Positions 3,001-41,720 are shown, counted from the stretch's first letter. The stretch is 64,000 bases of DNA from Candidatus Heimdallarchaeum aukensis (GCA_021513695.1 CP084166.1:288001-352000); one strand, 5' to 3'. Numbers and translations are program-made. The notes: generated from the sequence alone by a model not told the origin.

Positions 3001-6000
3001 TTCTTCTTTAGACGCTGATTCTGACAGTTTAACTAATTTAGAAGAGTATCAAAATAACACTGACCCCAATAATAGTGATTCTGATAATGATGGTTTAACT
3101 GATGGTTCAGAGGTTAATACTTACAATACTGACCCCAATAATTCTGATACTGATTCTGATGGTATGCCTGATGGTTGGGAAGTAAACTACAGTTTGGACC
3201 CCTTAACTGATGATTCTTCTTTAGACCCCGATTCTGACAGTTTAACTAATTTAGAAGAGTATCAAAATAACACTGACCCCAATAATAGTGATTCTGATAA
3301 TGATGATTTAACTGATGGTTCAGAGGTTAATACTTACAATACTGACCCCAATAATTCTGATACTGATTCTGATGGTATGCCTGATGGTTGGGAAGTAAAC
3401 TACAGTTTGGACCCCTTAACTGATGATTCTTCTTTAGACGCTGATTCTGATGGTTTAACTAATTTAGAAGAATACTCTTCTGGTACTAACCCTTCTAATT
3501 CTGATACTGATTCTGATGGTATGCCTGATGGTTGGGAAGTAAACTACAGTTTGGACCCCTTAACTGATGATTCTTCTTTAGACCCCGATTCTGACAGTTT
3601 AACTAATTTAGAAGAGTATCAAAATAACACTGACCCCAATAATAGTGATTCTGATAATGATGATTTAACTGATGGTTCAGAGGTTAATACTTACAATACT
3701 GACCCCAATAATTCTGATACTGATTCTGATGGTATGCCTGATGGTTGGGAAGTAAACTACAGTTTGGACCCCTTAACTGATGATTCTTCTTTAGACGCTG
3801 ATTCTGACAGTTTAACTAATTTAGAAGAATACTCTTCTGGTACTAACCCTTCTAATTCTGATACTGATTCTGATGGTATGCCTGATGGTTGGGAGGTTAC
3901 TAACAGTTTGGACCCCTTAACTGATGATTCTTCTTTAGACGCTGATTCTGATGGTTTAACTAATTTAGAAGAATACTCTTCTGGTACTGACCCCAATAAT
4001 AGTGATTCTGATTCTGATGGTATGCCTGACGGTTGGGAAGTAAACTACAGTTTGGACCCCTTAACTGATGATTCTTCTTTAGACGCTGATTCTGATGGTT
4101 TAACTAATTTAGAAGAGTATCAAAATAACACTGACCCCAATAATAGTGATTCTGATAATGATGGTTTAACTGATGGTTCAGAGGTTAATACTTACAATAC
4201 TGACCCCAATGATTCTGATACTGATTCTGATGGTATGCCTGACGGTTGGGAAGTAAACTACAGTTTGGACCCCTTAACTGATGATTCTTCTTTAGACGCT
4301 GATTCTGACAGTTTAACTAATTTAGAAGAGTATCAAAATAACACTGACCCCAATAATTCTGATTCTGATAATGATGGTTTAACTGATGGTTCAGAGGTTA
4401 ATACTTACGGTACTGACCCTAATAATTCTGATTCTGATAATGATGGTTTAACTGATGGTCAAGAGGTTAATACTTACGGTACTGACCCTAATAATTCTGA
4501 TACTGATGGAGACAGTATGCCTGATGATTGGGAAGCAAATAATAATTTAGATCCTTTAATTGATGATTCTTCTTTTGATGCTGATTCTGACGGTTTAACA
4601 AATTTAGAAGAATACTCTTCTGGTACTGACCCCAATAATAGTGATTCTGATAATGATGGTTTAACTGATGGTTCAGAGGTTAATACTTACTCTACAGATC
4701 CATTAGATTCTGACACCGACTCTGATGGTATGCTTGATGGTTGGGAGGTTACTAACAGTTTGGACCCCTTAACTGATGATTCTTCTTTAGACGCTGATTC
4801 TGACAGTTTAACTAATTTAGAAGAGTATCAAAATAACACTGACCCCAATAATAGTGATTCTGATAATGATGGTTTAACTGATGGTTCAGAGGTTAATACT
4901 TACAATACTGACCCCAATGATTCTGATTCTGATAATGATGGTATGCCTGACGGTTGGGAGGTTACTAACAGTTTGGACCCCTTAACTGATGATTCTTCTT
5001 TAGACGCTGATTCTGATGGTTTAACTAATTTAGAAGAATATTCTTCTGGTACTGGCCCTACTAATTCTGACACTGATTCTGATGGTATGCCTGACGGTTG
5101 GGAGGTTACTAACAGTTTGGACCCCTTAACTGATGATTCTTCTTTAGACACTGATTCTGATGGTTTAACTAATTTAGAAGAATACTCTTCTGGTACTGAC
5201 CCCAATAATAGTGATTCTGATTCTGATGGTATGCCTGACGGTTGGGAGGTTACTAACAGTTTGGACCCCTTAACTGATGATTCTTCTTTAGACGCTGATT
5301 CTGACAGTTTAACTAATTTAGAAGAATACTCTTCTGGTACTGACCCTAATGATTCTGACACTGATTCCGATGGCATACCTGATGGTTCAGAGGTTAATAA
5401 TTACTCCACTGATCCTTCTAATAGTGACACTGATTTTGATGGTTTAACTGATGGTTCAGAGGTTCTCTATGGTACTGATCCTTCTAATAATGACACCGAT
5501 TCTGATGGTTTAACTGATGGTTCAGAGGTTAATACTTACTCTACTGACCCTTTGGCTTCTGACACTGATTTTGATGGTATACCTGATGGTTGGGAAGTTA
5601 CTAACGGTTTAGACCCGTTATCTGATGATTCTTCTTTCGACCCCGATAATGACGGTTTAACTAATTTAGAAGAATACTCTTCTGGTACTGACCCCAATGA
5701 TTCTGACACTGATTCCGATGGCATACCTGACGGTTGGGAGGTTACTAACAGTTTAGACCCATTATCTGATGATTCTTCTTTCGACCCCGATAATGACGGT
5801 TTAACTAATTTAGAAGAATACTCTTCTGGTACTGACCCTAATGATAGTGACACTGATTTTGATGGTTTAACTGATGGTTCAGAGGTTAATATTTACTCCA
5901 CTGACCCTAATAATAGTGACACCGATTCTGATGATATGCCTGATGGGTGGGAAGTCAGCAACAATTTGAACCCATTGAAAGACGATTCTGCTTGGGATAT

Positions 6001-9564: not shown

Positions 9565-10536
9565 ATGACTAAATCGACTGTAACAAAGAATGGAAACAAA
9601 GATTCAAAGATATTACCAATTACATTAAAGCTATCTGTTATAAGTTTTAATCGTGTTTCTATCCCATCTCATTTAAGCTTCATTGAAACTGGTGATACAA
9701 TAATAGGAACTATTGAACATGAACTATTGCCAAGTCCTCAATATTTAAACAAGCAATTAAGTTCTAATCGAACTATAACTTTAGGTTTCTTAAAAAAACA
9801 ATTTCCTGGAAAAAAGCTACCTGAAAATATAACTATAACTATTAGAGAAGTGATAAAAAAGAAAGAATCTTTGCCCACAGTAAATGTTTTTGGGTATATA
9901 AGAAATCAAGACAAACTAATTTATTTTGATAAGTCTGAATTTTCTTCCTCTTCTCTAAAAAAATTAAAAGATAAAGCGAAGAATAGTGTTGAAATATTAT
10001 ATACAAAAAAAGATAATATGCCGTTTACTATTCTTCAAGGAGATTATTTTAAGGATTTAGATCTTTGGGTAGTTCCTATTATTTTCTATCTTCAAGGAGA
10101 TTTTGGTTTAGTTCCATCTTGCCTGTTACTGCTTTTTGATAAAGTAAACTTTACTAAATTTTCATCAATACAAGATAAGGCTAATCTTTTGATAGAGCGA
10201 TATGTTACTTGGTTAAGTTTTGAAGAAGATTTGAATGAAGAAACAATCAAACTCTTTGCTTTACAGCTGACTCATATAATAGAAACTAATACTTTACCAG
10301 CTTTCTATGGATTACAAGAAATACTAACAATGGAAGATGAACTTAAAAAAAGAATATTGATTATCTGCATTAAAAACAGGAAAAAAAATGGAATTACTTT
10401 AGAAGAGTTATTTGAACATTTAGAAAGTTACAGTGAAGAAGTAGTTAAAAACAAAGTTGAACAATTAGAAAAAGAGAATCTTCTTTTATTATTGGACAAA
10501 AAAACTGAATCATATGATATTTCTTGGTTGTTGTAG
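9565..10536 (+). CDS. Hypothetical protein, 323 aa. Its C-terminus looks like a winged helix (ITLEELFEHLESYSEEVVKNKVEQLEKENLLLL). It is divergent from xpd.
   Basis: Long ORF at a coding-like position 83 nt from the divergent xpd start. I recognise no known motif. Confidence 0.45.
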   Translation: MTKSTVTKNGNKDSKILPITLKLSVISFNRVSIPSHLSFIETGDTIIGTIEHELLPSPQYLNKQLSSNRTITLGFLKKQFPGKKLPENITITIREVIKKKESLPTVNVFGYIRNQDKLIYFDKSEFSSSSLKKLKDKAKNSVEILYTKKDNMPFTILQGDYFKDLDLWVVPIIFYLQGDFGLVPSCLLLLFDKVNFTKFSSIQDKANLLIERYVTWLSFEEDLNEETIKLFALQLTHIIETNTLPAFYGLQEILTMEDELKKRILIICIKNRKKNGITLEELFEHLESYSEEVVKNKVEQLEKENLLLLLDKKTESYDISWLL

Positions 10537-10569
10537 TTAAGGCAATTTGAACTTTAATGAACTCTTTTT

Positions 10570-12093
10570 TTGAAAAAGTTAGTAAAAATATATAAAACTA
10601 CAAAACAATCTTTAATTATGGTGCTTTACTTAGCCAAAATAATTAATTTTTACTCAAGGTTTATTGGTTACATATTGTCTTTTATTGTACCCATCTTTTT
10701 GATAGGAATTATCTCATTAGAAGGAGTATCAGTCGAAGCAATAACCTCATCTTCATTCTTGTTTGCTATTACTATTAGTTGGGGTGTGTTATTAGGAAAT
10801 AGTTTACTACTTTCAATAAATGCAATTATCGTTTCTCTTTCTTTTGATAATGAAGTAAGAAAACTAAAAGAAGAAGGAAAACCAATAGAATCTGCTGAAG
10901 GTTTCAGGAATCTAGAAAGACGTTATAAAATGAGCAACTTTTTTATTTTCGTTATACTTTTTCTAGCTATTCTTTCTTGGTTGTTTTTTAACTTCGCTAT
11001 TAAAATAAAAGAAGAGTTAGCAAAGTTCTTTAACTATGTGATTAGTGAAGAAAAACTAGCTTCTCTTAATCTTTATCTAACTTTAAGCTTTCTACTATTT
11101 ACAGTTGCAGCAACTTTAATTTTTCGTATTCCTTCAATTGCAGACCTAAGAATTGGAACTTTGTTGAAATACTATAAACCTTCAAGACACAAATATGTTT
11201 TGAATTCGTACTTTTATGATGTTGTGTTTAGTTTACTTGATCCTATTACTCGCATCTATTTTTTGAAATGGAGTGAGAAGTCAGTTAAACAATTAAACGA
11301 TGATTTTGCTCCTAAAATTGTTTCTTTGATTGAAAGAAAGAATTTAGCTGTTCAAAACATATTAATTCTATATTATTTACATCATCGATTTCCTAGTTTA
11401 ATTGATTTTGATACTTTAAAAAATGAAATCAAAAGAATTATCCCAGAAGAAAGAGTTGATAACCTATTTTACAGATATGAATTCAACTTAGAAACTTGGA
11501 AAAAGATATTTTCAATCTTACTCAAGAAAAATAGGGACTTATTTTTAATTATTGACAGAATAATATTTACTTTGAAAGAAACACCTTATGTTATGAATTC
11601 TAAGAAATACTGGTTTACTAGTGCTGTTCCTCCAACTCAAAAAAAAGAAGAAAGCCAAGACATTATCTTTTTTGTTTGGAATCGAAATAAAAATTCAGGA
11701 TATTCACCATTTATTTCCTTAAGCTTCATTGGAGCTGATGATCTCTCTCCTCACGATTTTGAAATGTCATTTAAAATACGTAAATATGATGATTTCATTT
11801 TAATTCCTGAAGATTATGATTTTGATAAAAACCCTGATTTACGTTTTTTGGTTAAACTTGTTACAGGGATTGTTTATCAAGGAACAGGTATATGGTTTTC
11901 AGTACATAGCGAGAACATTGGTAGCAATATGATTGCCATCGAGTTTAGAGAAAAAGAAGAACCTTTAGAAACACAGATGTTCAACATGAGAGTAGTTATA
12001 GATTTTAGAACAATTTTACAGTCGTGGGGACCAAGATTACTCGCATCCTTTGGTGTGCTTCTACCTTTAGTCAAAGCAATATTAGGGTTATAA
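10570..12093 (+). CDS. Hypothetical membrane protein, 507 aa. It has 4 to 6 N-terminal TM helices and a soluble C-terminal domain. It is probably co-transcribed with the 9565 gene.
   Basis: Hydrophobic segments: FIGYILSFIVPIFLIGIISL, FLFAITISWGVLLGNSLLL, FFIFVILFLAILSWLFF, LYLTLSFLLFTVAATLIF. There is a 33-nt gap to the upstream gene. Confidence 0.45.
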   Translation: MKKLVKIYKTTKQSLIMVLYLAKIINFYSRFIGYILSFIVPIFLIGIISLEGVSVEAITSSSFLFAITISWGVLLGNSLLLSINAIIVSLSFDNEVRKLKEEGKPIESAEGFRNLERRYKMSNFFIFVILFLAILSWLFFNFAIKIKEELAKFFNYVISEEKLASLNLYLTLSFLLFTVAATLIFRIPSIADLRIGTLLKYYKPSRHKYVLNSYFYDVVFSLLDPITRIYFLKWSEKSVKQLNDDFAPKIVSLIERKNLAVQNILILYYLHHRFPSLIDFDTLKNEIKRIIPEERVDNLFYRYEFNLETWKKIFSILLKKNRDLFLIIDRIIFTLKETPYVMNSKKYWFTSAVPPTQKKEESQDIIFFVWNRNKNSGYSPFISLSFIGADDLSPHDFEMSFKIRKYDDFILIPEDYDFDKNPDLRFLVKLVTGIVYQGTGIWFSVHSENIGSNMIAIEFREKEEPLETQMFNMRVVIDFRTILQSWGPRLLASFGVLLPLVKAILGL

Positions 12094-20956: not shown

Positions 20957-22552
20957 TTGTTCTTTCTTAACTATAATGAGCGAAGCTCTGAGTTGTTTCA
21001 ATTATACAAAGAATTTCACAAATTTATTAATAATAATAATGTTTACAAAGAGAAGTCTTACATCATAAAGTATTTTCTTCTCTTAAATAACCTATATTCG
21101 CAAGCTATGTTTTTTGATCCTTCTTTACTAAATATCCTGTCAAAAGAAATAGAACAAATATCATCAAAAAGCAAAAATATTCTTGAAATCCAAGCTTTAA
21201 AATGCCGTATTGATGCTGTTGTTCTAAAGATGCAAAAAAAATTAGACCTTTCAGCCGAAAAAATTAAAGAATCATTCCGAATTGCTAAAAAGTTTAAGAA
21301 AAGTAATAGAGATATATTCTATGATATAGCTTTTTCATACCTTTCTTTCTATCCTGAGTTGATACGAAAGAATACAAAAACAGATCACTCATTCTGGAAA
21401 GAAGTTATTAATTATTTTTATAAAACAAATAAGATAAGGTCTTATTTAGTGATCAAATCTTTTTATATTCTATTTTTAATAAGACAAGCTCAAAATGATA
21501 AGGCTAAAAGCCTGATAGAAGAAGTTGAAAGAGAGAATATATTAGAAAAAGTCCATATCGAAATTAGAATAATGATAAGCTTCAGGATTGGTAAAAGTTA
21601 CTATTTATTAAAACAATATTCTCTTGCTGAAAAATACTTTGAACTTTCTTTTAAACTTCAGAAACAATCAAGACTTCTGTTTCATTATTATTTCTTTGCT
21701 CTAGAAAGTTTGAAGTTTCTAGCTCGTTCTGCTGTTTTTAAAGGAAATCTGGAAAAATCTATGAATTATTTGAAAGAATTATATCAAATACTTGCAAAAT
21801 TAAGGGGTAAAATTGAAGAAGAAACGTATGACTATTATTTTTATAAACTCTATTCTACTTTAAGATTTATTTACTATGTTATGGATAAAGACTTTTCAGA
21901 AGAAATATTCCCTAATCTAAAAGAGCAGCTGTCTAAAATAGTTAAAATAGAAGAATTCCTTTTTCTAAAAGACCAGAACTTAATAATCGAGTATTATGCA
22001 GAGAAAAATGATGAGTTGCAAAGTGCATATATTGAATCAGTGGTAGATCTACTTTTTGTTGACGATACCCCTAAAGAAGAAGTTGAAAAAAGATTATTAA
22101 AGCTACACGAAGCACTGAAAAAAAGAACTTTTACTCAAGAATTCTCCATAATAAATAAGCTAGAATCTTGTAAGATCCTTTTATCAAGAGGATTGTTTGA
22201 TTATTTCCATTCTCTGATTGAAGAGCTTGAAAGTGAAATCAAAAATACTGAAGTGATAATTTACAGAATACAATTCAAGATTTATAAACTAATTGACTTA
22301 TATCTGCAAGATAAAGCAAAAAACAAAGAAAGAGCATTACAAGGGTTATCTGAACTTGAAATTGAATGTAAGAAATTAAAGTTTATTAAAATAACTGAAG
22401 AAATAAAGATGTATAAGCTTCTTATTAATTCAGAGTATTTAGCAGAGAAACTTAAAGAAGAATTCATGAAAATTGCCTTACAAGAAGAATATGAAGAGCA
22501 ATCCAAACAATTGATACAAGAGTTCTCAAAAAATAAACAAAAAAAACTTTAG
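20957..22552 (+). CDS. Hypothetical K/E-rich helical-repeat protein, 531 aa.
   Basis: Long ORF with alpha-helical repeat character and no catalytic motifs. It is divergent from the ParA-like gene. Confidence 0.45.
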   Translation: MFFLNYNERSSELFQLYKEFHKFINNNNVYKEKSYIIKYFLLLNNLYSQAMFFDPSLLNILSKEIEQISSKSKNILEIQALKCRIDAVVLKMQKKLDLSAEKIKESFRIAKKFKKSNRDIFYDIAFSYLSFYPELIRKNTKTDHSFWKEVINYFYKTNKIRSYLVIKSFYILFLIRQAQNDKAKSLIEEVERENILEKVHIEIRIMISFRIGKSYYLLKQYSLAEKYFELSFKLQKQSRLLFHYYFFALESLKFLARSAVFKGNLEKSMNYLKELYQILAKLRGKIEEETYDYYFYKLYSTLRFIYYVMDKDFSEEIFPNLKEQLSKIVKIEEFLFLKDQNLIIEYYAEKNDELQSAYIESVVDLLFVDDTPKEEVEKRLLKLHEALKKRTFTQEFSIINKLESCKILLSRGLFDYFHSLIEELESEIKNTEVIIYRIQFKIYKLIDLYLQDKAKNKERALQGLSELEIECKKLKFIKITEEIKMYKLLINSEYLAEKLKEEFMKIALQEEYEEQSKQLIQEFSKNKQKKL

Positions 22553-23845: not shown

Positions 23846-24991
23846 TTAATATACTCCCAATTGTTCATCTTTTTTTAGTATTCTTCTAGGGTTCCTAATT
23901 CCGTCTCTATTGCTGTAAATACCTTTTCCTTTTATTAATTCTCCATAGTCCCCATATTGAATTAAAGCTGGTATCACACATTCGGGGCTTACTCTTTGGC
24001 TAACTACTGTTCCTTCTTCACCATAGCTCCCTCGTTGACTAATGTCATTTTCATCTTTAGTTATGAACATATTCATTCTTTCCCAAGGATAATAATCTAA
24101 ATCATAATTATCATTGGGTAATTCTGTTTGCATTGTTGGTCCAAAAAGTGATTGTCCGTAGTATCCTGCAAGAGGTAATTGTAATTCTTCTTTAACTAGT
24201 CTATGTGTCTCCTGAGACATTGGAACACCCCCATGAATAATTGCTTTAAGATTTCCTTGCTCTTTCATTTTTTTGATTATAGGATACATTTTTTCAATAA
24301 TTACACCAGTTGTAATAACAATTCCTATGTTACTGAATTCTTGTTCTATCAAATTCTGTACTTGAAAATTCATATTTTCTAGGTATAGCTTCGCTGCATT
24401 TGGATCTTTCATCATTGCGACTTTTATAAATCGAGGATCAAGGTCTATGTGATAAATCATTGATTCCATATCTCTATCCCAGTACTTTATTACCCACTTT
24501 CCAGCCATATGTGGGCCTGTAGGAAGCATTGATAAAACATTCAACCCTCTTGGGATTTTGTGTGCATCAATCATTTGTAAAGCTGCTTGACTAGCAACAG
24601 GAAAAGTAGGTGTTTCAATATCGTATGGGTCTAATTCTCCTGGGAGAAGTGTCATATCTTCTAGAAAGACAGTTTTTTTTGGCTTGCCTGTTGTTCCTCC
24701 AGTTTCAACTAAAGGAGTAGATCTATATCTATTCTTCTTTGCCCACTGAAAAGCCCATTTAGTAGTTGTATGGTAAATAGACTTTCTAAACTCATCAGGG
24801 TTTACATTGCCAAAAAACTCTGCAAGTTCAACCCAGTTTCTAACATCACCTTTTTTTACATTTTTCTCCTTTGCTAGATTAATCATCATAGGAGAGCCAT
24901 ATTGTTCATCAATAGCGATATTTACGCATTCTTCAATAAAATCACTTATTTGATTTTTACTTGCTGTTTTACTTTTGGTCTCTGTAATCAT
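23846..24991 (-). CDS. Adenylate-forming enzyme of the PaaK / coenzyme-F390-synthetase / LuxE (acyl-protein synthetase) superfamily.
   Basis: AMP-binding P-loop VETGGTTGKPKKTV, compare PaaK SSGTTGKPT and LuxE TSSGTNG. The 381 aa length resembles LuxE. Confidence 0.5.
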   Translation of the reverse strand: MITETKSKTASKNQISDFIEECVNIAIDEQYGSPMMINLAKEKNVKKGDVRNWVELAEFFGNVNPDEFRKSIYHTTTKWAFQWAKKNRYRSTPLVETGGTTGKPKKTVFLEDMTLLPGELDPYDIETPTFPVASQAALQMIDAHKIPRGLNVLSMLPTGPHMAGKWVIKYWDRDMESMIYHIDLDPRFIKVAMMKDPNAAKLYLENMNFQVQNLIEQEFSNIGIVITTGVIIEKMYPIIKKMKEQGNLKAIIHGGVPMSQETHRLVKEELQLPLAGYYGQSLFGPTMQTELPNDNYDLDYYPWERMNMFITKDENDISQRGSYGEEGTVVSQRVSPECVIPALIQYGDYGELIKGKGIYSNRDGIRNPRRILKKDEQLGVY

Positions 24992-25232: not shown

Positions 25233-26885
25233 TCATGAAAAATAGTAAGTATTTAGAACAAGTTTATCATAGATTTCTTGATACATTGAAGCAAGAGCAG
25301 AAGTTGCTAATTCTTTTTCAAATTCTCTCGTAGTAATCTCTTCATCAGTTTTCTTTTTTAACCAATTAAGTCTAAAGATTGAAATTAGTGCTCTTCCGAT
25401 ATAGTATAGACTTAATGGTAAGGCTAAAACAATTTGGACTAAAAGTTTTAGAATATTAATTAAAGCAATTATTCCTTTTTTATCATTTTGTATCTGTAAT
25501 TTCTCATTATCTTTAGATTCTTTTTTGGTTAATTTTTTAATAAATTCTCTTTTCATTTCTTTGAATCGAGTTTTAACATAGATTTTCAAAAAATTCTTCT
25601 GTGTTTTACTTAGGAAAAATTGTGTTTCTGATTTAATATGCTTTATGTAGTCGATGAAAATTTCGACTATGGCTAGTACAGGGCCTAACAAAAAGATTAT
25701 TGTGTTTCGGAGAAAAATCAGAATCTTAAAATACCATGGATTCTCAGTAAAAAAGTCTAATATGTATCTTTGACCTCCTAAAGCTAAAGAAAAAGCTATC
25801 TGACTGAACACATTATCTGATAAATCTATATTGTATTTCTTTTCTAACTCATAAATTCCTCTTAAACTACCTGTAAGCAAAATTGAGTTATAAAATTCAT
25901 CAGAGACAAATTTATCTTTTAATTTGTTGGCTATAAAACTTAAAGCTTTTTTAGCTTCTTTGTATGTTAAGTTGTTATTTTTAGCGAATTGTTTAATTGC
26001 AGGATTTTTTTTCCATGGAAAGAAACTTGATTGCCTTTTCCAGATAAGTAAAGCAAAAGCTCGAGCAATTGAATCCTCTATTTTATGCATGTCAAGTCTT
26101 TCTTGATCAATTTTAGATAGATATTGATTAAATAACTCTTGAGTTTCTTTGCTCATATTAGCTCCGTAAATATTTAGAAAATCCATAACTCTTCGTTTGA
26201 TTGCATCTACATCTTGATGTAAATCAATTTTAAAATCTTCATAAGTTTCTTTAGAAATAGGTGGAGCATCAATAAAACGGTAAGAACTTCTAGAAGCAAG
26301 AAAAGGTAAGGCGAAGATATCTTCCAGTTTTTGGTAATAATAAGCTGCTCGATAAGCTTTATATTTAAGCATAATCATACTCATTTTGTGAAATAGCTTG
26401 AAAAACGGTCCAAAAGAGGCTGTTATTGCACTTAACATTCCTTGAACAGTACTAAAAACTAAAATTAATATTAAAGGATGAATATAGCTAAATTTCTCAA
26501 GAAAAGGTTGTTTCCATACAAATAATGGAAGAAGGACAAAGAGAGAAAAAGTAGAAAATTTATCAAAAAGTTCTCCAACACTTCGTTGGATAGGATAAGC
26601 ATCTCTTATTTTTTCTTGTTTCAAAAGAATATCATCTACTGTTTCTTGTACATTAGCTAACTCCTTTTTCTCTTTACTTGCAAGAATGGTGGAGAGATAA
26701 AGAAGATATTTTCTTTGGATATTTAAAGCAGGAACTAATTCAGTAATACTTCTTGGAATAAAGATATAGGATATAATGAGCAAAATCTTTGAAAGAACTA
26801 CAATTGGAAATAGAAGAGAGACAACAATTATTGCTAAAAAGTCTATCCACTTAGAGTGATGTTCTATCTCTTCTACTTCCGTCAT
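25233..26885 (-). CDS. Hypothetical polytopic membrane protein, 550 aa.
   Basis: Several hydrophobic helices: LAIIVVSLLFPIVVLSKILLIISYIFI, FSLFVLLPLFVW, ILILVFSTVQGMLSAITASFGPFF, IIFLLGPVLAIVEIFI. Confidence 0.45.
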   Translation of the reverse strand: MTEVEEIEHHSKWIDFLAIIVVSLLFPIVVLSKILLIISYIFIPRSITELVPALNIQRKYLLYLSTILASKEKKELANVQETVDDILLKQEKIRDAYPIQRSVGELFDKFSTFSLFVLLPLFVWKQPFLEKFSYIHPLILILVFSTVQGMLSAITASFGPFFKLFHKMSMIMLKYKAYRAAYYYQKLEDIFALPFLASRSSYRFIDAPPISKETYEDFKIDLHQDVDAIKRRVMDFLNIYGANMSKETQELFNQYLSKIDQERLDMHKIEDSIARAFALLIWKRQSSFFPWKKNPAIKQFAKNNNLTYKEAKKALSFIANKLKDKFVSDEFYNSILLTGSLRGIYELEKKYNIDLSDNVFSQIAFSLALGGQRYILDFFTENPWYFKILIFLRNTIIFLLGPVLAIVEIFIDYIKHIKSETQFFLSKTQKNFLKIYVKTRFKEMKREFIKKLTKKESKDNEKLQIQNDKKGIIALINILKLLVQIVLALPLSLYYIGRALISIFRLNWLKKKTDEEITTREFEKELATSALASMYQEIYDKLVLNTYYFS

Positions 26886-29668: not shown

Positions 29669-30406
29669 TTATTTTTGAATTATCTGTTTTTCTTTAACAT
29701 CAATTTCAATTAATGAATTATTTTTTAGTAGTTTTGCTTCACCCAGTGAGGGAAGATAGCAGGAACTAATTATAATTGTTGAATCAGAATTATATAGTTT
29801 CATTGTGTAGTACAAAGGATATTTTTTGAAAAAAACACCTATCCAAACTTTTTCATTGTTAGCTAAAATGAAATTTGCACCACTATAATCCCACTCTTTT
29901 ATTAAATTATAAACTGCTTCACTTGATAAAGAACCATTTTTTTCTATTAGTTCCAGTAATTTAAAGAAATATTTTTCAGAGTCTGTGGTTCCTTTAGGGG
30001 TAAATCTGTTTTTATCAACTTTTATTTCTGTTTTTATTGTTCCATTATGCATGAAAACCCACGTCTTTCCTAAAAATTCTTGATCAAATGGGTGATTATT
30101 TTTGATATCAATTTCAATTCCTGGAGAAGCTTTTCTTGCATGTATTAGAGCTATTTCTCCTCTATTTACTTCTGAGTAAATATCAACTGAAGTGGAAAAA
30201 ATAGGTTCAAGGAAGTGAAAAGTTGAAAAACTACCGTTTTTGAGAAAAGAATAACCAAATCCATCAGGATGAGGAAATGTTTGATCCTCATTTCTCTCGT
30301 GAATATCTAGTTTAGGTCCTTTTAGATAATCTTCACAAGAAAGAATAAACTCCGAAATAGCATTCTTTTCTAAATTTTTTCCTATTTTTACGAATAATCT
30401 ACACAT
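29669..30406 (-). CDS. Class II glutamine-amidotransferase-like Ntn hydrolase (YafJ-like).
   Basis: Starts MCRLF, where Cys2 would be the N-terminal nucleophile typical of GATase type 2. The 245 aa length fits. Confidence 0.4.
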   Translation of the reverse strand: MCRLFVKIGKNLEKNAISEFILSCEDYLKGPKLDIHERNEDQTFPHPDGFGYSFLKNGSFSTFHFLEPIFSTSVDIYSEVNRGEIALIHARKASPGIEIDIKNNHPFDQEFLGKTWVFMHNGTIKTEIKVDKNRFTPKGTTDSEKYFFKLLELIEKNGSLSSEAVYNLIKEWDYSGANFILANNEKVWIGVFFKKYPLYYTMKLYNSDSTIIISSCYLPSLGEAKLLKNNSLIEIDVKEKQIIQK

Positions 30407-30549
30407 AACCTTGAAACAAATTATCTATTAAAAAGTATTATTATTAGCTTTTAACTGGTTTTCTGATGAAATTAAACGACAGAAATTGTAAATCTTTATA
30501 TATTTAGCTTTGGAGAGATTAATTATGAGTTGAAATTTTACGTAATTTT

Positions 30550-30730
30550 TTCAGGACTCTACCCAACCAGGCAAAACATCGATGAATGTTAGGACTGGTT
30601 TAAGAGAACAAGAGACACAGTCTACTAATGTTCTCTAAGGGGTTCATCTCCTTATCCCGGGCACTCATAACTCCCAAAGGGAAGACCGGGTGTCGTAGGA
30701 ATGTAACCTACGTCTTAAAGCATCTAGCTC
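30550..30730. ncRNA. Candidate structured non-coding RNA of unknown class; the strand is also unassigned. It is a GC-enriched island of roughly 45% GC in a roughly 28% GC intergenic region, containing several complementary segments.
   Basis: Direct reading: helices agagaaca/tgttctct (30603-30610 and 30629-30636), CCCGG/CCGGG (30656/30686), uccc-aaa-ggga. There is no ORF longer than 30 codons. In AT-rich archaea, stable RNAs stand out by GC content. Confidence 0.25.
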
Positions 30731-30844
30731 AAGACAAAGAATAAATGTGATTTGAGTGAGTATATAAAGACCACAAGAAAACTGTGCCATGCTTTCTGTA
30801 TATCTAAAACACAACCTTCTTAAAATTTACGTAAAAAATTAATT

Positions 30845-31684
30845 ATGGAAAATGAAGAAACTCTAATAAATGAGCTGAAAAGTGGTTTCGGAACTATAGG
30901 GGTTACTTCTCTTGTAGCTTTTATTTTTAATCTTGCTTTTCTAATTTTTCAGCTAAGCTATTTAAGTAATTATTCACATAATAATTTATCATATAGTAAC
31001 TATTATTTAATATATATTGGCGGTAGTAGTATTTCTTCATTGTTGTTTACTCTGATTTACTTTAGTTTTTTGTACTTAAGCAGAAAGATAGATGAAATAG
31101 AAAAAAGCAAAGAAAACACTATATTTAGAATATCAACAACTATTGCAATTTTGATAATATTCTTTAATATTGGATTCTTTTTAGCTCAATTCTTAGTTGT
31201 AAATGCTGATCAATATTCTGATATTTTTAGTATATCTTACATTATTTTGCAGATATGCTTCATTTTCGTTTATATCTTCTTTGCTCTTTCAATAAGTAAA
31301 ATGAATAGTAAAATGGAAGTTGGAGTAATTATTTGGCCAATTGTAATATATGCAACTATTAACTCAATCGGAGCAATATTTAGGCTAATAATTCAAACTC
31401 TTATTATACTACAACTCTCTTCTTCTGCTTTATTCACCAGCATACTATATTCTTTCTTTAAAAGTATTGATCTAGTTGTTGAATTAATATTTATTATAAC
31501 CATGTTCTTTGTAGCAAACAATGCTCAAATTTCTTTATTACATCAAGTACCACGATATACTTCTTATGCATATTCAGGACCTGTATATAAATCCAAACAA
31601 TCAACTAATTTTTGTCCTTTTTGTGGAACAGAAAATTCTCCTGATTCAAAATTTTGTATAAACTGTGGAAAAAGGATAGATTAG
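30845..31684 (+). CDS. Polytopic membrane protein with a C-terminal cytoplasmic zinc ribbon. This is paralog 1 of a tandem pair.
   Basis: Six to seven TM helices. C-terminal CPFCGTENSPDSKFCINCGKRID is a CxxC...CxxC zinc ribbon. Confidence 0.55.
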   Translation: MENEETLINELKSGFGTIGVTSLVAFIFNLAFLIFQLSYLSNYSHNNLSYSNYYLIYIGGSSISSLLFTLIYFSFLYLSRKIDEIEKSKENTIFRISTTIAILIIFFNIGFFLAQFLVVNADQYSDIFSISYIILQICFIFVYIFFALSISKMNSKMEVGVIIWPIVIYATINSIGAIFRLIIQTLIILQLSSSALFTSILYSFFKSIDLVVELIFIITMFFVANNAQISLLHQVPRYTSYAYSGPVYKSKQSTNFCPFCGTENSPDSKFCINCGKRID

Positions 31685-31962
31685 ATTCTCTACCATTTAT
31701 CTTTTTATTTTGCTATAGAAATCCAAACATCAAAAAAATTTTACTAGTTGATTTATAGGTTATTTTTTAATCCTCACAAAAAAGAATGATCTCTGAAAAT
31801 TTTTTGCTTAAATTTTCACTCGAACTTAAAAATTATCTACACTGAAGTTGAAATAAATTATTAATTAAAAAGTATCTTTAGTTTAATTTTCTATAGTTTT
31901 ATTAAGAAGCATGAAAAAATATATTGAAAGCTTTATATATTTGGATTTGTAGCCTTATATTT

Positions 31963-32808
31963 ATGAAAAATGAAGAACTTCTAATTAATGATTTGAAGCT
32001 AGGTTTCAGAAAAATAGGATTTGTTTCAATCTTAACTCTGGCTTTTAGTCTTGCTTTTGTAATTATTCAACTTAACTATGTAAGTAAAATGTCACATGGT
32101 ATAAGTCTTTATTTAGTATATCTAGTAGGGAATATTCTTTCTTTATTGTTTTTAGCTCTAATTTATTTTGCTTTTCTATACTTAAGTGGAAAGATAAATA
32201 AAATAGAGAAAAGTAAAGAAAATACTATATTTAGCACAGTAACGATAATTGCAGTAGTGTTAATATTCTTCGATATTGGATTATTTTTAGGTCAATTTTT
32301 ACTTAGCTTTTCCAATATGCAATTTTCTAATATATTATCCATTATTTATGTTATTTTTTACATTATTTTGTTACTAAGTTCTTTTTTTGTATATATCTTC
32401 TTTCCTCTTTCAATAAATAAAATGAATAGTAAAATGGAAATTGGAGTAATTACCTGGCCAATTGTTATATATGCAATTGTTAATTCAATTGGAGTAATGA
32501 TAAGAATAATAGCACAAGTTTTCATTGTTTTACAAATTACTCCTATGGCTGTATTTACAAGTATTCTCTATTCTATCTTTCAATTTATAAATCTGGCTGT
32601 TGAATTAATGTTTATTATAAGCATGTTTTTTGTAGCTAACAATGCTCAAATTTCTTCATTACATCAAGTACCACAATATGTTCCTTCTGCATATTCAGGG
32701 CCTGTAGATAAATCTAAACAACCAACATTTTGTCCTTTTTGTGGAGCACAAAATTCTCCTGATTCAAAGTTTTGTATAAACTGTGGAAAGAAGATAGATT
32801 CGAATTAG
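31963..32808 (+). CDS. Polytopic membrane protein with a C-terminal zinc ribbon. This is paralog 2 of the tandem pair. I placed the start at the ATG (MKNEELLINDL), which aligns with the paralog 1 N-terminus; the track started at the TTG at 31924.
   Basis: MKNEELLINDLKLGF versus MENEETLINELKSGF. The two are collinear throughout. Zinc ribbon: CPFCGAQNSPDSKFCINCGKKIDSN. Confidence 0.55.
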   Translation: MKNEELLINDLKLGFRKIGFVSILTLAFSLAFVIIQLNYVSKMSHGISLYLVYLVGNILSLLFLALIYFAFLYLSGKINKIEKSKENTIFSTVTIIAVVLIFFDIGLFLGQFLLSFSNMQFSNILSIIYVIFYIILLLSSFFVYIFFPLSINKMNSKMEIGVITWPIVIYAIVNSIGVMIRIIAQVFIVLQITPMAVFTSILYSIFQFINLAVELMFIISMFFVANNAQISSLHQVPQYVPSAYSGPVDKSKQPTFCPFCGAQNSPDSKFCINCGKKIDSN

Positions 32809-37164: not shown

Positions 37165-38199
37165 TTGAGATATGTAAAATTAAAAAAAGAAAAAATTAGA
37201 GAGTTCTTGCTTGCTCTACAAGACTATGGGGAACTTTATGCACCAATTAAGGTTTCGGAGAAATATTTTGATTTTAGAAGGATTACAAATGAGCAAGTAG
37301 ACGAAGTAGTTTTAGATTACAATCGTACTCTTCGTCCTCCGAGGAGATTTTTCTTTCCTGAAAAAGAAGTATTGTTTACCTTTAACAGCAAAAAAGTAGA
37401 AATGTACGAGAATAAAGAAGCTTTTACTTCTGAACCTGTGGTCTTATTTGGAGTACATGCATGTGATATTGTTGGTTTACGGATAATGGATTCAAGATTT
37501 ATAGATGATCAGCCAGATCCTTATTATCGAGCTAGAAGAGAGAAAGGAATAATTATTGGTATTAGTTGTTTACCTGATGAATACTGTTTTTGTAATGTTC
37601 GAAGAGCTGAGTTTGTAGATAGCGGTTTTGATTTGTTTTTAAGTGAAGTAGAAGATGGTTATGTCATTCGTGTAGGTAGTGTAAAAGGGCATAAGATAAT
37701 TGATGCAACAGAGCATCTTTATGTTAAAGTAACAAAGAAAGATAGTGATGACTTAACTGCTTTTGATGTCAAAAAAAGTAAAATGTTTACAGTTTCTGGA
37801 AATTGGGACTCTTTACGATATACTCTCGAACTAAATGATGAACATCCAGTTATTTGGATGAGAGAAAGTGAAAAGTGTTTGGGGTGTGGAAACTGTACCA
37901 TTACTTGTCCTACTTGTAGATGTTATGATGTAAAAGATTATCCCAACTTAGACGGAGAAACAGGTGTTAGAGTAAGAATATGGGATTCATGCCAATTCAG
38001 AGAACATGGATTAGTTGCAGGAGGACATAATTTTCGACCAACAAAAGAAAGTAGGTTCAAGAACAGATACATGTGCAAAAATGCTTATTGTAAAGAAGTT
38101 ACAACAGCATATTGTGTCGGTTGTGGAAGATGTACGTATTTCTGTCCTGCTGGTATAAATTACAAGCAGAATTTAATTGAAATTAGAGGTGGAATTTAA
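37165..38199 (+). CDS. hydB: Group 3b [NiFe]-hydrogenase (sulfhydrogenase) beta subunit, FeS protein.
   Basis: MRYVKL N-terminus as in the Pyrococcus sulfhydrogenase beta subunit. Two ferredoxin-like 4Fe-4S motifs: CLGCGNCTITCPTCRC and CVGCGRCTYFCPAG. TTG start preceded by GGAGAG 10 nt upstream. Confidence 0.75.
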   Translation: MRYVKLKKEKIREFLLALQDYGELYAPIKVSEKYFDFRRITNEQVDEVVLDYNRTLRPPRRFFFPEKEVLFTFNSKKVEMYENKEAFTSEPVVLFGVHACDIVGLRIMDSRFIDDQPDPYYRARREKGIIIGISCLPDEYCFCNVRRAEFVDSGFDLFLSEVEDGYVIRVGSVKGHKIIDATEHLYVKVTKKDSDDLTAFDVKKSKMFTVSGNWDSLRYTLELNDEHPVIWMRESEKCLGCGNCTITCPTCRCYDVKDYPNLDGETGVRVRIWDSCQFREHGLVAGGHNFRPTKESRFKNRYMCKNAYCKEVTTAYCVGCGRCTYFCPAGINYKQNLIEIRGGI

Positions 38200-39086
38200 T
38201 GACTGAAGAATCACATAGAAGATACATTCCTGATGGTCAAGATAACTTGTACGATACACATAAATGTAGAGTACTTCGTGTTTATAAGCAAACTGAAATG
38301 GATAAAGTGTTTTTATTCAGGTTCGTAGATCAAGAAGTCGGTAAAAATTGGAAGTTTAAACCAGGGCAATTTGTAGAATTATCTCTACCTGGAATAGGTG
38401 AAGTGCCAATTTCAATATGTTCTTCTGCAATGCGTATTGGATTCTTTCAATTATGTATTAGAAAAGCAGGAAGGGTTACAACGAAGATACATGAGTTGAA
38501 ACCTGGAGATATCGTGGGAATAAGAGGACCTTATGGAAATGGTTTTCCAATGGAGAAATTTTTTGGAAGAAATCTCTTGCTTGTTGCAGCAGGATTAGGA
38601 ATGGCCCCCTTACGTTCTGTTTTCCTATATGCAATAGATAATAGATGGAGATTCGGAGATATAACTATTATTAACTCTGCTAAATATGAAAGAGAACTCT
38701 TATTTGCAAGAGAGTTAGAAGCTATGAGAGATATAGCAGAAGCAGAAAATATACAAATTATTCAGACAGTAACAAGAGAAGACAGTCCTAATAGATTGAA
38801 GGGTAGAGCTTCAGAGCATTTAGATAAAGTAATGATAGATCCAAAGAATAGTACAGTAGCGTTATGTGGTCCTCCAAGAATGTATAAGAGTATGTTTGAA
38901 AAATTAGTTGAAATGAATTATGATCCACGGAGAATATTTGTAACTCTAGAAAGAAGAATGAAGTGTGGAATAGGAAAGTGTGGGCACTGTAATCTCGGAA
39001 ACTCCACTTCTTGGAAATACGCTTGTATTGATGGTCCTGTTTTTGACTACTACGATATCATCAGCACCCCAGGAATGTTAGAATAG
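38199..39086 (+). CDS. hydG: Sulfhydrogenase gamma subunit: FAD/NAD(P)-binding oxidoreductase with a 2Fe-2S cluster.
   Basis: Flavoprotein-pyridine-nucleotide-reductase-like domain, with GxGxAP in LVAAGLGMAP. C-terminal cluster motif CGIGKCGHC. The start overlaps the hydB stop (ATGA). Confidence 0.75.
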   Translation: MTEESHRRYIPDGQDNLYDTHKCRVLRVYKQTEMDKVFLFRFVDQEVGKNWKFKPGQFVELSLPGIGEVPISICSSAMRIGFFQLCIRKAGRVTTKIHELKPGDIVGIRGPYGNGFPMEKFFGRNLLLVAAGLGMAPLRSVFLYAIDNRWRFGDITIINSAKYERELLFARELEAMRDIAEAENIQIIQTVTREDSPNRLKGRASEHLDKVMIDPKNSTVALCGPPRMYKSMFEKLVEMNYDPRRIFVTLERRMKCGIGKCGHCNLGNSTSWKYACIDGPVFDYYDIISTPGMLE

Positions 39087-39097
39087 GAGGAAAAAAA

Positions 39098-39952
39098 ATG
39101 TCGATGAAAACAACAATAATCCCTGAAGATCAGAAGATAGAAATAAAAGAGGAAACTAAAAGAAAACCTACAATTGGAGTTTATGCTTTGACTTCTTGTT
39201 ATGGTTGTCAATTAAAAATAGCTACTGTTTCAAAGATTCTTGAGATTGCTGAAAGTGTAGACATAGAAAGCTTTTACATGTTATCTTCTGATAGCAGTAT
39301 ACATAAGAAAGTCGATATCGCTTTTGTTGAAGGTTCTGTTTCAACAAAGAAAGATTTAGAAGAATTACTCGAGATAAGAAAAAATAGTAAAACTCTAGTG
39401 GGTGTAGGAGCTTGTGCTTTACAGGGCGGTGTCCAAAGCTGGAGTAATGGTATTAAGAGCTATGATGAGCTTTTTGAAAATGTATATGGAAAAAACAAGA
39501 TTGAGATATCAGAAGCTATAGAAGCAAAACCGATAGAAGAATATGTTGAAGTTGATTTTAGATTACCTGGTTGTCCTCCTGAAGAAGAAGAAATAATTTA
39601 TTTCATCTCTACTTTCCTATTTGGTTCATGGCCAGAAGAAAAAGACTATCCTGTATGTCAAGAGTGCAGATTCGCAGGAAATATTTGTTTGCTTATTGAA
39701 AAGAATGAGCCTTGTTTAGGTTCAATAACAACTGCAGGATGCAATGCACGTTGTATCTCATATAATGTTCCTTGTATTGGATGTCGAGGACCTGTACCTA
39801 ACGATGTAGCATGGTTTGATTCTCTAGCAAAAGTCTTTGTAGAGAAAGGATTTACAGAAGAGTATATCAGAGAAAGAATGAAGATCTTCGGTTCTCACCA
39901 TCCTAAATTAGAAGAGTTGTTAGCTAAAGTTTTTGGAGGAGAAAAAAAATGA
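39098..39952 (+). CDS. hydD: [NiFe]-hydrogenase small (delta) subunit, NuoB-like FeS protein.
   Basis: ALTSCYGCQ proximal-cluster motif, plus further Cys ligands (GACALQGG, CPP, C..C..C). Confidence 0.75.
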   Translation: MSMKTTIIPEDQKIEIKEETKRKPTIGVYALTSCYGCQLKIATVSKILEIAESVDIESFYMLSSDSSIHKKVDIAFVEGSVSTKKDLEELLEIRKNSKTLVGVGACALQGGVQSWSNGIKSYDELFENVYGKNKIEISEAIEAKPIEEYVEVDFRLPGCPPEEEEIIYFISTFLFGSWPEEKDYPVCQECRFAGNICLLIEKNEPCLGSITTAGCNARCISYNVPCIGCRGPVPNDVAWFDSLAKVFVEKGFTEEYIRERMKIFGSHHPKLEELLAKVFGGEKK

Positions 39953-41259
39953 CAACAATAAAATTTACACAACCTATAACCGTTGATCATATTGCGAGGA
40001 TTGAAGGAAAGGCAGGAATAGAAGTACAAATTAATGATAAAAAAGAAGTAGAAGTTAAAGTAAATATCTTTGAAGGTCCTCGTCTTTTTGAAAGTATAGT
40101 AATAGGAAAGAGTGTAGAGGAGGCAACAGCGGTATTTCCGAGAGTATGCTCTTTTTGTGCTGCTGCACATAAAATAACAGGATTGCTAGCTGCTGAAGAT
40201 GCTATTGGTTTACAAGTTTCAGAGCAAACAAGCAAAATAAGAGAACTAATGTATATTGGTGATATGATTGAAAGTCATGCTTTACATCTATTTTTACTAG
40301 CTTTACCTGACTTCCTAGGTTATCCAGATGGAATAAGCATGGGCAAAGAACACCCTTCTGTAATTAAAGCAGCTCTTCAACTGAAAGATTTAGGTGCTAT
40401 TATTCAAACAATTACAGGTTCTAGATATATTCATCAAGAGAATGCTTTAATGGGTGGTTTTGGAAAAATACCTACAAAGGCTAAACTAAACGAAATTATT
40501 AAACTCTTACATGATTCTAAAGATGTTTCTACTGTTGCACTTGAGCAATTTGCAAAGTATGAATTGTGGGAAGAAGTAAGTTCAGAGAGACTACATCTAG
40601 CTTTAGAACCAAAAAACGATGTTTATGGAATAATAGGAGAGAAAATAAAAGCAAGTGATGGAACAAGTTTTAATGCCAATGAATACATGAAAAATATAGA
40701 AGAAAGAGTTGTTCCACATTCATTCGCAAAGCATTCAAGTTATAAAGGAAAGAGGTTCACAACAGGAGCTCTATCAAGAATAACTTTGTTCAATTCTTTG
40801 TTAAATGACAAAAGCAAAGAGTTATACAGCAACTATAACAATTTCATTGATGCTAATAATCCACTATCTAACAATATAGCCCAAGCAATTGAATTAAGTT
40901 ATTTCATAGACCGCGCAGAAGAGTTAACTTTAGACATATTAGAGAATTATAAGGATGAGCAGCGTATAAAGCCTACTTTTAAAGAGGGTATAGGTTATGC
41001 CGTAACAGAAGCTCCTAGAGGGTTGCTAGCTTACATGATTAGTGTAAATGACGAGGGTAAAGTAACAAAAGCAGATATCATTACTCCTACTGCAATGTTC
41101 CTAGCACAAAAAGAAGTAGACTTGAAAAAAATGACAGAATCCATGATTGAGAAAGGAGTTGAAGATCCTTCAGAAATAAGTAAGAAATTAGAAACAATAG
41201 TCAGGTCTTATGATCCTTGTGTGTCCTGTAGTGTTCATGTTACTAAATTAAGAAAATAA
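39949..41259 (+). CDS. hydA: [NiFe]-hydrogenase large (alpha) subunit.
   Basis: N-terminal NiFe ligand motif RVCSFCAAAH (RxCxxCxxxH). C-terminal DPCVSCSVH followed by a short extension that the maturation protease removes. Translationally coupled: ATGA overlap with hydD. Confidence 0.8.
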   Translation: MTTIKFTQPITVDHIARIEGKAGIEVQINDKKEVEVKVNIFEGPRLFESIVIGKSVEEATAVFPRVCSFCAAAHKITGLLAAEDAIGLQVSEQTSKIRELMYIGDMIESHALHLFLLALPDFLGYPDGISMGKEHPSVIKAALQLKDLGAIIQTITGSRYIHQENALMGGFGKIPTKAKLNEIIKLLHDSKDVSTVALEQFAKYELWEEVSSERLHLALEPKNDVYGIIGEKIKASDGTSFNANEYMKNIEERVVPHSFAKHSSYKGKRFTTGALSRITLFNSLLNDKSKELYSNYNNFIDANNPLSNNIAQAIELSYFIDRAEELTLDILENYKDEQRIKPTFKEGIGYAVTEAPRGLLAYMISVNDEGKVTKADIITPTAMFLAQKEVDLKKMTESMIEKGVEDPSEISKKLETIVRSYDPCVSCSVHVTKLRK

Positions 41260-41720
41260 TGATTTATATGAACAAAACACTTATTCTTTCCCTTGGTAGT
41301 AGAGTAATGTCAGATGACGCTATTGGACATGTCATTGTTCAAAACCTTCAACAAAAGAAAGTTAAAGCTGATATTATTCAATTAGATACTGATATTTTCA
41401 AATTAAACTTATTTTTTGATAATCATAAAAGAATAATAATCATCGACGCTATTCAAAGCAGTGATTCACCAGGGACAGTTCATGTAATTCCTTTTCATGA
41501 TTTTGAAAAGGAGATCGAAGGAAAAATTAGAGGAAGTCATTTTTTGGACATGAAAGAAGGTTTAGAACTTCTGCGTATAGCTAACTCCAAAATTGCTGAA
41601 GCTGAAATATTTTTAGTAGGTATAGTTATTAAAAAAATTGAACTAGGAACGGATTTAACTCCAGTTTTATTAAAAAAAATTGATGAAGTTTGTAATATTA
41701 TATCTGATCTTATAATATAG
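41259..41720 (+). CDS. hycI: Hydrogenase maturation endopeptidase (HycI/HybD family).
   Basis: LGSRVMSDDAIGHVIV matches the GNxxxxDDGxG motif. The 153 aa length fits. It sits immediately after the large subunit. Confidence 0.7.
   Translation: MIYMNKTLILSLGSRVMSDDAIGHVIVQNLQQKKVKADIIQLDTDIFKLNLFFDNHKRIIIIDAIQSSDSPGTVHVIPFHDFEKEIEGKIRGSHFLDMKEGLELLRIANSKIAEAEIFLVGIVIKKIELGTDLTPVLLKKIDEVCNIISDLII

Follow-up and report, generated by a model that had tools for sequence, protein, structure and literature searches.

The GC-rich island and the insertion that contains it

We analysed a stretch of 64,000 nucleotides (nt) from Candidatus Heimdallarchaeum aukensis (GCA_021513695.1, CP084166.1:288001-352000), hereafter the window, with coordinates counted from its first letter. 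Our subject was a GC-rich island between a GATase-like gene on the minus strand (29669-30406) and the first, on the plus strand (30845-31684), of two tandem genes for zinc-ribbon membrane proteins. This first gene encodes a multi-pass membrane protein of 279 amino acids (aa) with a C-terminal zinc ribbon, and the paralogue beside it (31964-32808, ATG at 31964) encodes a protein that is likewise multi-pass with a C-terminal zinc ribbon. The original prediction proposed the island as a candidate non-coding RNA, perhaps of an unclassified kind, and its description of the sequence was accurate. GC content is 0.42-0.48 across 30550-30749 versus 0.22-0.35 on either side (100-nt intervals), clearly above the flanks as had been claimed. 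Counted in 120-nt intervals over the whole 64 kb, the peak of 0.475 at 30580 is the highest (mean 0.304, standard deviation 0.056, about 3 standard deviations), followed by a few coding regions at 0.458-0.467. Every complementary pair that had been quoted was located: AGAGAACA (30603-30610) with TGTTCTCT (30629-30636), CCCGG (30656-30660) with CCGGG (30686-30690), and TCCC-AAA-GGGA at 30672-30682. The island also holds no long open reading frame (ORF), as stated; the longest one overlapping it has 49 aa, or 53 aa if counted from stop to stop.

Alignment with related loci shows that the island is part of an insertion, one that parted the ATG of the first zinc-ribbon gene from its TATA box. The whole inserted element, oriented on the minus strand, spans 30525-30846. 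It measures 320 nt, and each of its ends is uncertain by 2 nt, since both junctions contain AT. Its limits were set by the empty site, by the paralogue and by the limits of homology with copies elsewhere. The empty site was found in three contigs reached through a homologue (P0002, 87% identity) of the GATase-like protein. The same two genes lie 120 nt apart in these contigs (L021, L023 and L024) versus 438 nt in the window, and the alignment contains a single clean gap that removes 30525/27-30844/46. The feature is thus sharply bounded at 30525/27 and 30844/46, and somewhat larger than first described. Comparison with the paralogue gave the same picture, as about 320 extra nt separate the promoter of the first gene from its ATG. 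The paralogue has the box TTTATATA (at 31932) 23 nt ahead of its ATG. The corresponding plus-strand TATA box of the first gene (30495-30502) is now 343 nt from the ATG and was formerly 23 nt from it. An ATG is still found at 30525, 23 nt past this box, where it opens no reading frame; the real ATG lies 320 nt downstream, at the start of the gene at 30845, whose start codon is the insertion point. A box 23 nt from the (ancestral) ATG in both tandem genes suggests that their transcripts are leaderless.

The same filled site is present in a metagenome contig (L015) with a 372-nt version of the element; the insertion at this locus is common to two strains. The window copy is 48 nt shorter than this orthologous copy, and the loss is internal (30772-30821). 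At this locus only, the element is flanked by a 10-nt direct repeat, ATTAATTATG, which is single in the empty site; the other insertions share AT(G) only. The left copy (30518-30527, plus strand) holds the ancestral start codon (30525-30527), and the right copy lies at 30838-30847. The repeat may have arisen by chance, the DNA being AT-rich, through extended homology to the target, or by slippage at the boundary, as is on record for IS605 elements (PMC10055086). We weighed a plain 10-bp target duplication by eye and dropped it, with no tool support.

The position immediately upstream of the zinc-ribbon pair, which the original prediction had pointed out, is an accident of insertion at an ATG and not a functional association. 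Unless it is silent, the gene at 30845 must now depend on transcription that crosses the element or that starts in weak AT-rich sequence at the element's far end; the paralogue next door is intact. Start-codon insertion is certain only for the window copy. It is possible for two copies in another genome: at one of these (L010), an ORF with FG-GAP repeats begins exactly at the RNA-side end of the element, and L005 is the other. The FG-GAP protein beside L010 was searched to locate an empty site, and no homologue was found at E ≤ 1e-30.

Copies, ends and target motif of the repeat family

When the complete Ca. Heimdallarchaeum endolithica PR6 genome (CP084167.1) was searched with a 20-mer from the core of the island, the 20-mer matched exactly at eight places, which gives at least eight copies in this genome. 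Each of these matches sits in a repeat of about 375-385 bp. The PR6 copies are 92-98% identical among themselves and about 85% identical to the window copy; their flanks are unrelated, and homology ends abruptly at both ends of the element. A second probe, a 21-mer, retrieved eight more contigs from JGI hydrothermal metagenomes, which include the orthologous filled site (L015), two PR6-like loci of other strains and a rearranged copy (L020). Three metagenome contigs (L013, L014 and L016) form a third subfamily. In all, the element was found at at least 12 unrelated loci. The multiple copies, sharp ends, unrelated flanks, filled and empty sites and lack of a protein gene firmly identify it as a non-autonomous mobile element. 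The sequence of the island is thus kept in related genomes as a mobile element, not at a syntenic position, so that conservation, which the original prediction had named among its tests, held for the sequence and failed for the locus. One metagenome copy (L018) shares the flank of another locus (L012) on one side and differs from it on the other, through either a chimera of metagenome assembly or recombination between copies.

The window and the fetched loci contained no second or degenerate copy (blastn, nhmmer). Phage and plasmid collections gave no match to the element, and neither did the IMG/VR viral contigs when searched with four patterns (the core twice and each end once). So far, the family is known from Heimdallarchaeum only. 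We did not find it described in the papers examined on Heimdallarchaeum mobile elements and archaeal insertion sequences, which give only generic 'non-tandem repeats' and counts of unclassified repeats; the supplements of Wu et al. 2022 and of a 2026 survey of archaeal insertion sequences contain no list of transposase families for these genomes. The family is now defined by its exact ends, a target motif, an empty site and three subfamilies. Its novelty is modest: the type of element is known, the family is new and the lineage is of interest.

On the plus strand of the window, each copy reads flank-YYAT, GAGTTGAAATTTTACGTAATTTC, core, ATATATAAAGA, filler, TTTTTTACGTAAAAAAGTATCTCAT, and G-flank. 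The two end sequences are GAAATTACGTAAAATTTCAACTCAT and ATGAGATACTTTTTTACGTAA, and each end has a hairpin or palindrome centred on TTACGTAA. At the end next to the core, the hairpin GAAATT-loop-AATTTY (30532-30549, minus strand) is followed by AACTC-AT and then by the flank. At the far end, sequence comparison identified the palindrome AAAATTTACGTAAAAAA (30822-30838), which reads TTTTTTACGTAAAAAA in the PR6 copies. With the junction AT assigned by the minus-strand IS605 convention, GAAATT..AATTTC and TTTTTTACGTAAAAAA each start 7 nt from the end nearest to them.

The insertion motif, counted over 12-13 independent sites, is YYAT|GGA on the plus strand of the window, which is TCCAT|RR on the minus strand. 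Upstream of the junction, position -4 is a pyrimidine at 11 of 12 sites (T at 6, C at 5, A at 1), position -3 is a pyrimidine at all of them (C at 7, T at 5), and the A at -2 and T at -1 are invariant. Downstream, G occupies +1 in 12 of 13 sites and +2 in 8 of 13, and A occupies +3 in 8 of 13. The motif is not palindromic, and the orientation of the element relative to it is constant at all sites. No target duplication of fixed length was found: the two junctions share only AT(G), and the base before AT is mismatched in 4 of 13 copies.

The rearranged metagenome copy (L020, 1778-2155) occupies the same locus as a copy from another strain (L006, 2000-2378), with the first 146 nt of the element inverted, so that the rearrangement is polymorphic. 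The inversion is bounded exactly by 7-nt inverted repeats, TATGAGT at the end and ACTCATA within the core. In the window, this internal pseudo-end lies at 30663-30669 on the plus strand as the inverse of the junction TATGAGT; on the predicted RNA strand, it falls in the large internal loop UUAUGAGUG. The inversion fits excision at an internal CTCAT pseudo-end followed by re-insertion at a target motif on the opposite strand. The product would be no different if the two 7-nt inverted repeats had recombined.

A conserved block with a predicted promoter and RNA

Conservation along the element is uneven. Between the window copy and one PR6 copy (L009), the end next to the core is 97.5% identical, the stretch of two variable helices (30567-30636) 71%, and the 99-nt core (30637-30735) 97%. 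Beyond the core, identity falls to 62% in a spacer, returns to 10 of 11 positions in the TATA motif TATATAAAGA, and falls again to 54% over the remaining ~110 nt and 52% at the far end. The constrained block runs exactly from the TATA motif through the multi-hairpin core to the near terminal hairpin, and is the only block that keeps about 97% identity between diverged subfamilies. The filler from this promoter to the far end (30772-30821), at 54% identity to the PR6 copies, is the part that has 48 nt fewer than in the orthologous copy.

The TATA motif belongs to a predicted archaeal promoter on the minus strand (30761-30775), with the box TTTATATA reading from 30768 to 30761 and facing the core. 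Its motif, TC-TTTATATA-(T/C)T, shares box and context with host promoters at 30495, 31932 and 58114, where TC-TTTATATA-TTT stands 21-23 nt before an ATG. The box is kept in all 15 aligned copies, and the adjoining spacer is only 62% identical. Downstream of the box, at a distance of 26 nt in window-type and 22 nt in PR6-type copies, comes a G with which the 9-bp hairpin M1 begins in either type. This G, at about 30735 in the window, is the predicted start of the RNA, in the sequence GUCUUGAGC. From the arrangement of these sequences, we infer that the conserved block is a minus-strand transcription unit with its own promoter, which would produce an RNA of about 210 nt running into the flanking DNA. 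The assignment of the strand rests mainly on the promoter and on the position of the conservation boundary. No U-tract is found ahead of the end of the element on the RNA side, and because of this the transcript would leave the element. Given the direction of the promoter, the flanking sequence AAUUAAUCUCUCCAAAGCUA (30505-30524, minus strand) would form its 3' extension.

The predicted RNA scaffold (30527-30735, minus strand) coincides with the GC island and was derived from RNAalifold on 15 copies, independent folds and the identity of the core. From 5' to 3', it consists of hairpins M1 (30712-30735), M2 (30694-30712) and M3 (30656-30690), a three-way junction round the two variable helices, and the terminal hairpin. 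In the variable helices, P2 (30603-30636) and H1 (30567-30598), the sequence diverges with pairing kept (71% identity versus 97% in the core). The 261 nt quoted in the original prediction folded with modest z scores of -2.06 (plus strand) and -1.77 (minus) relative to dinucleotide shuffles. The refined 209-nt unit gave -2.9 (plus) and -2.3 (minus), with 1-2 of 200 shuffles folding equally well. Window-type and PR6-type sequences folded independently to one architecture (z of -2.3 and -2.9). The consensus of the 15 copies has 61 pairs, with 98.5% of cells paired, and its energy was -53.9 kcal/mol on the minus strand versus -46.5 kcal/mol on the plus strand over the same columns. The changes in helix H1 (helix 9 of the consensus), which include G-C to G.U, U-A to U.G and two double-sided changes, are compatible with the minus strand only.

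Rfam 15 gave zero matches over the whole window at the gathering score, and at E ≤ 10 only chance-level matches to the window copy and one PR6 copy. No covariance model for HEARO, signal recognition particle (SRP) RNA, RNase P RNA, 5S rRNA or riboswitches matched the island, and ARAGORN found no tRNA in the window, in agreement with the earlier failure to place the island among SRP, RNase P or tRNA sequences. A C/D-type or H/ACA-type small RNA, a tRNA-like module and a 5S-like module were weighed by eye and dropped, with no tool support. The idea of an unclassified RNA stands in that the island is structured and constrained, plausibly an RNA, and outside any Rfam family; it does not stand as a single-copy native RNA gene, the island being part of a 320-nt insertion. 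A 5S rRNA gene could not be predicted in two complete Heimdallarchaeum genomes (Wu et al. 2022, PMC8813620), and the island is now removed as a lead for a missing housekeeping RNA in Heimdallarchaeum. Rfam detected no 5S and no other RNA family in the 64 kb.

An IS200/IS605-like reading and its alternatives

At about even chances, we read the island as the core of a non-autonomous IS200/IS605-like element of ~320-385 bp, a palindrome-associated transposable element (PATE) with a self-promoted omegaRNA-like RNA that is used in trans. The internal minus-strand promoter would start an RNA of ~210 nt at the first hairpin; the RNA would pass the core and the terminal hairpin and then continue into the neighbouring DNA. 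The element would move by the IS200/IS605-type 'peel and paste' route, mobilised in trans by a Y1 HUH transposase. The minus strand would be the top strand; TCCAT would serve as the transposon-adjacent motif (TAM) and CTCAT as the transposon-encoded end motif (TEM), and the right end would hold the RNA. As an omegaRNA-like cofactor, this RNA would have a flank-derived 3' tail that acts as a guide for a trans-encoded TnpB-type nuclease. By recognising the emptied site (TAM plus flank), the nuclease would help the element to be retained. The outward promoter may also, as a by-product, transcribe DNA beyond the RNA-side end, which here would be towards the GATase-like gene; that gene is on the same strand as the predicted promoter facing it and lies 118 nt past the end of the element.

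The minus-strand layout is consistent with this reading. It consists of a pentamer ending in CAT, a hairpin 7 nt inside, filler where tnpA and tnpB would lie, the promoter, and the structured RNA over the right end, where the hairpin is followed by AACTCAT and then by arbitrary flank. Among 13 sites on this strand, the candidate TAM is TCCAT at 6 and has CAT as its last three bases at 12; the candidate TEM, CTCAT, resembles it, and the AT may belong to flank or element. Experiments have defined TTCAT and TTTAT as TAMs in the IS605 family (PMC10055086). At the empty site, the would-be 3' tail sequence of the RNA stands right after T(T/C)CAT. Such an order is what a TnpB-type nuclease would need for cutting the vacated site. 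PATEs that encode omegaRNAs for trans-acting TnpB have been described (Meers et al., PMC10055086), and IS200/IS605 elements are reported from >65% of Asgard genomes (PMC13343696).

Like the published PATEs (PMC10055086), the Heimdallarchaeum element is small, non-coding and multi-copy, with subterminal hairpins at both ends. Both insert next to a 5-nt pyrimidine-rich motif ending in AT, carry a comparable motif at the opposite end and make no duplication of fixed length; a structured RNA region, which is predicted for the present element, adjoins one end and points outward, and the empty site consists of the motif followed by the would-be guide. Unlike them, the element has no linked Y1 transposase or TnpB, its RNA is not similar to omegaRNA or HEARO models in Rfam, and it has its own consensus archaeal promoter, an extra inverted symmetry ATGAG...CTCAT and an Asgard host. 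The omegaRNAs or reRNAs of TnpB and the archaeal sotRNAs of IS1341-type elements are also multi-stem RNAs of ~200 nt that lie over a transposon end and read into the flank, as predicted here. The known ones overlap or follow a tnpB ORF, whereas the present element has no ORF; homology was compared via Rfam only. The bridge RNAs of IS110/IS1111 elements resemble the predicted RNA in being element-encoded, structured and near one end, and its internal loop UUAUGAGUG carries target-plus-end junction sequence. In contrast, the insertion sites share only ~7 nt, no DEDD recombinase is linked, and the RNA is not beside a recombinase gene. An IS110 bridge RNA is contradicted by target diversity, as the flanks share only YYAT|GGA and not a specific target of ~11-14 nt.

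Several observations weigh against the reading as a PATE. Neither TnpA nor TnpB nor any other partner came to light in the sequences searched, namely the window and ~64 kb of PR6 flanks, and no genome-wide search was made. A crude motif scan for Y1 TnpA or the TnpB zinc finger was negative in the window and fetched loci, and no autonomous element with these ends was seen in the window, in the 64 kb of PR6 flanks or in the viral contigs. Pfam, run on 10 window ORFs (one of 323 aa, the rest of 343-550 aa) and on 10 ORFs beside the PR6 and metagenome copies, found no transposase among the former. The one transposase found near a copy is an IS481-like rve protein at L005, whose element has ends unrelated to the repeat. 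The RNA is unlike any Rfam family, HEARO included. The far-side hairpin lies 7 nt from the end, a spacing that differs from the 19 nt of IS608. Covariation support is thin, with 45 of 61 pairs invariant; both strands fold about equally well, and a constant G.U (hairpin AAGGGG/CUCCUU) and the junction-closing helix favour the plus strand. The 10-nt direct repeat at the window copy is not predicted by the IS605 model. The ends can also be read as an imperfect inverted repeat (17 of 22) starting ATGAG, and the target as CATG with AT duplicated, which would fit a DDE transposase. Both arms of this repeat are palindromic around TTACGTAA, so that direct and inverted similarity are indistinguishable.

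These last points lead to an ordinary miniature inverted-repeat transposable element (MITE), which we regard as possible, if on the unlikely side. Such an element would be cut and pasted by a DDE enzyme at imperfect terminal inverted repeats (ATGAGTTGAAATTTTACGTAA / ATGAGATACTTTTTTACGTAA), duplicating AT or ATG in a (C/T)ATG target. Its GC core would then play an internal binding or architectural part or ride along as a passenger, an RNA would be no more than a by-product, and the outward promoter would turn the element into a Correia-like mobile promoter. Besides the 17/22 symmetry, AT at both junctions speaks for it, with CATG at both for 6 of the 12 independent sites (or 7 of 13 once L018, which is the L012 locus of another strain, is added), as does the true-looking 10-bp duplication at the window copy. 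Some insertions, moreover, abut gene starts where an outward promoter would matter (the window, L010 and possibly L005). The weightiest objection is that a passive passenger would not hold 97% identity over 99 nt while the rest drifts to 52-62%; in contrast to classical MITEs, one end of the element is less conserved than these 99 nt. In 4 of 13 copies, the base before AT also differs from one junction to the other; the element never changes its orientation relative to the non-palindromic ATG, no duplication of fixed length is seen, and no DDE element with these ends was seen, the IS481-like ends at L005 being unrelated. The Correia elements of Neisseria are likewise short, have inverted-repeat-like ends, lie in promoter regions and can transcribe their neighbours. 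They differ in having clear terminal inverted repeats and a TA duplication and in lacking a long invariant structured core.

If the RNA instead served the host, the window copy might be a recruited small RNA gene, immobile and with a decayed far end, whose RNA is kept as, for example, a regulatory small RNA or the leader of a neighbouring gene. The window copy does keep only the block of promoter, core and hairpin, with far end and filler decayed and a 48-nt deletion relative to L015, and the insertion is common to two strains. We nevertheless judge such recruitment quite improbable: the block is equally conserved in young, evidently mobile PR6 copies, which makes the constraint a property of the family and not of the locus, and related genomes lack the element at the zinc-ribbon locus. 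In favour of a single-copy stable RNA gene of an unclassified kind, which had been the earlier view, or of a riboswitch-like 5' leader of the zinc-ribbon gene speaks a structured, intergenic GC island between the TATA box of that gene and its ATG. Either is now very improbable, because the empty site in three contigs and the dispersed copies contradict a chromosomal RNA gene or leader. The island is absent from the orthologous locus and from the paralogue, occurs at at least 12 unrelated loci, and has no Rfam or tRNA match. Hardly credible at all is a small basic protein gene (44-47 aa) or a decayed gene fragment. A plus-strand frame is open across the core in most copies and reaches 86 aa in L006, but this reading is contradicted because stop codons interrupt the frame (TGA in 2 of 15 copies, L013 and L016). 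Its start codon is not conserved, about 10 changes are non-synonymous versus 4 synonymous, the core ORF has no homologue among 5.8 billion proteins (nor did this search turn up ORFs called by mistake in further copies or a candidate autonomous element), and the minus-strand ORF of 49 aa has no Pfam match.

Beyond the reading as a PATE, we entertain, as an unlikely extension, that the element is an Asgard 'guide-RNA cassette' without a protein: two ends and a self-promoted scaffold RNA of ~210 nt whose 3' tail is copied from the DNA of the landing site. Such a cassette would program a trans-encoded effector that is TnpB- or Fanzor-like, or still unknown. In a bolder variant, the internal loop UUAUGAGU of the RNA would help to choose the YYAT target or the element end. 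The loop equals the target YYAT plus the element end GAGU, and U can pair with A or G.

What would make this family notable is a self-promoted guide-like RNA in an Asgard archaeon, which is plausible but unproven. If its RNA is indeed used in trans, the element would offer a small system, well suited to experiment, for the study of RNA-guided transposon biology in Asgard archaea, and an example of an element that rewires leaderless promoters by sitting exactly on a start codon. If the cassette or loop readings were true, the RNA would represent a new class, one that serves to maintain transposons, in the lineage of archaea most closely related to eukaryotes.

Some further features were recorded along the way. 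The IS481-like element of PR6 at L005 (5724-6765) encodes a 314-aa transposase with helix-turn-helix and rve domains (5799-6740) and has a 17-nt direct repeat, ACTCACTTATTTCTCTG. In the right flank of the PR6 copy L009, a short ORF opens with an N-terminus (MDNETLQKKL...) that resembles the tandem zinc-ribbon proteins. Elsewhere in the window, several ORFs of 320-550 aa, among them 23846-24991, 25233-26885, 20957-22552 and 9565-12093, have no Pfam match at E ≤ 0.001. A 2469-aa ORF (5-7414) runs from a TTG at position 5, at the start of the window. At 37165-41720, Pfam identified a cluster with ferredoxin-like, FAD/NAD-binding, NiFe-hydrogenase small and large subunit, and HycI maturation protease domains.

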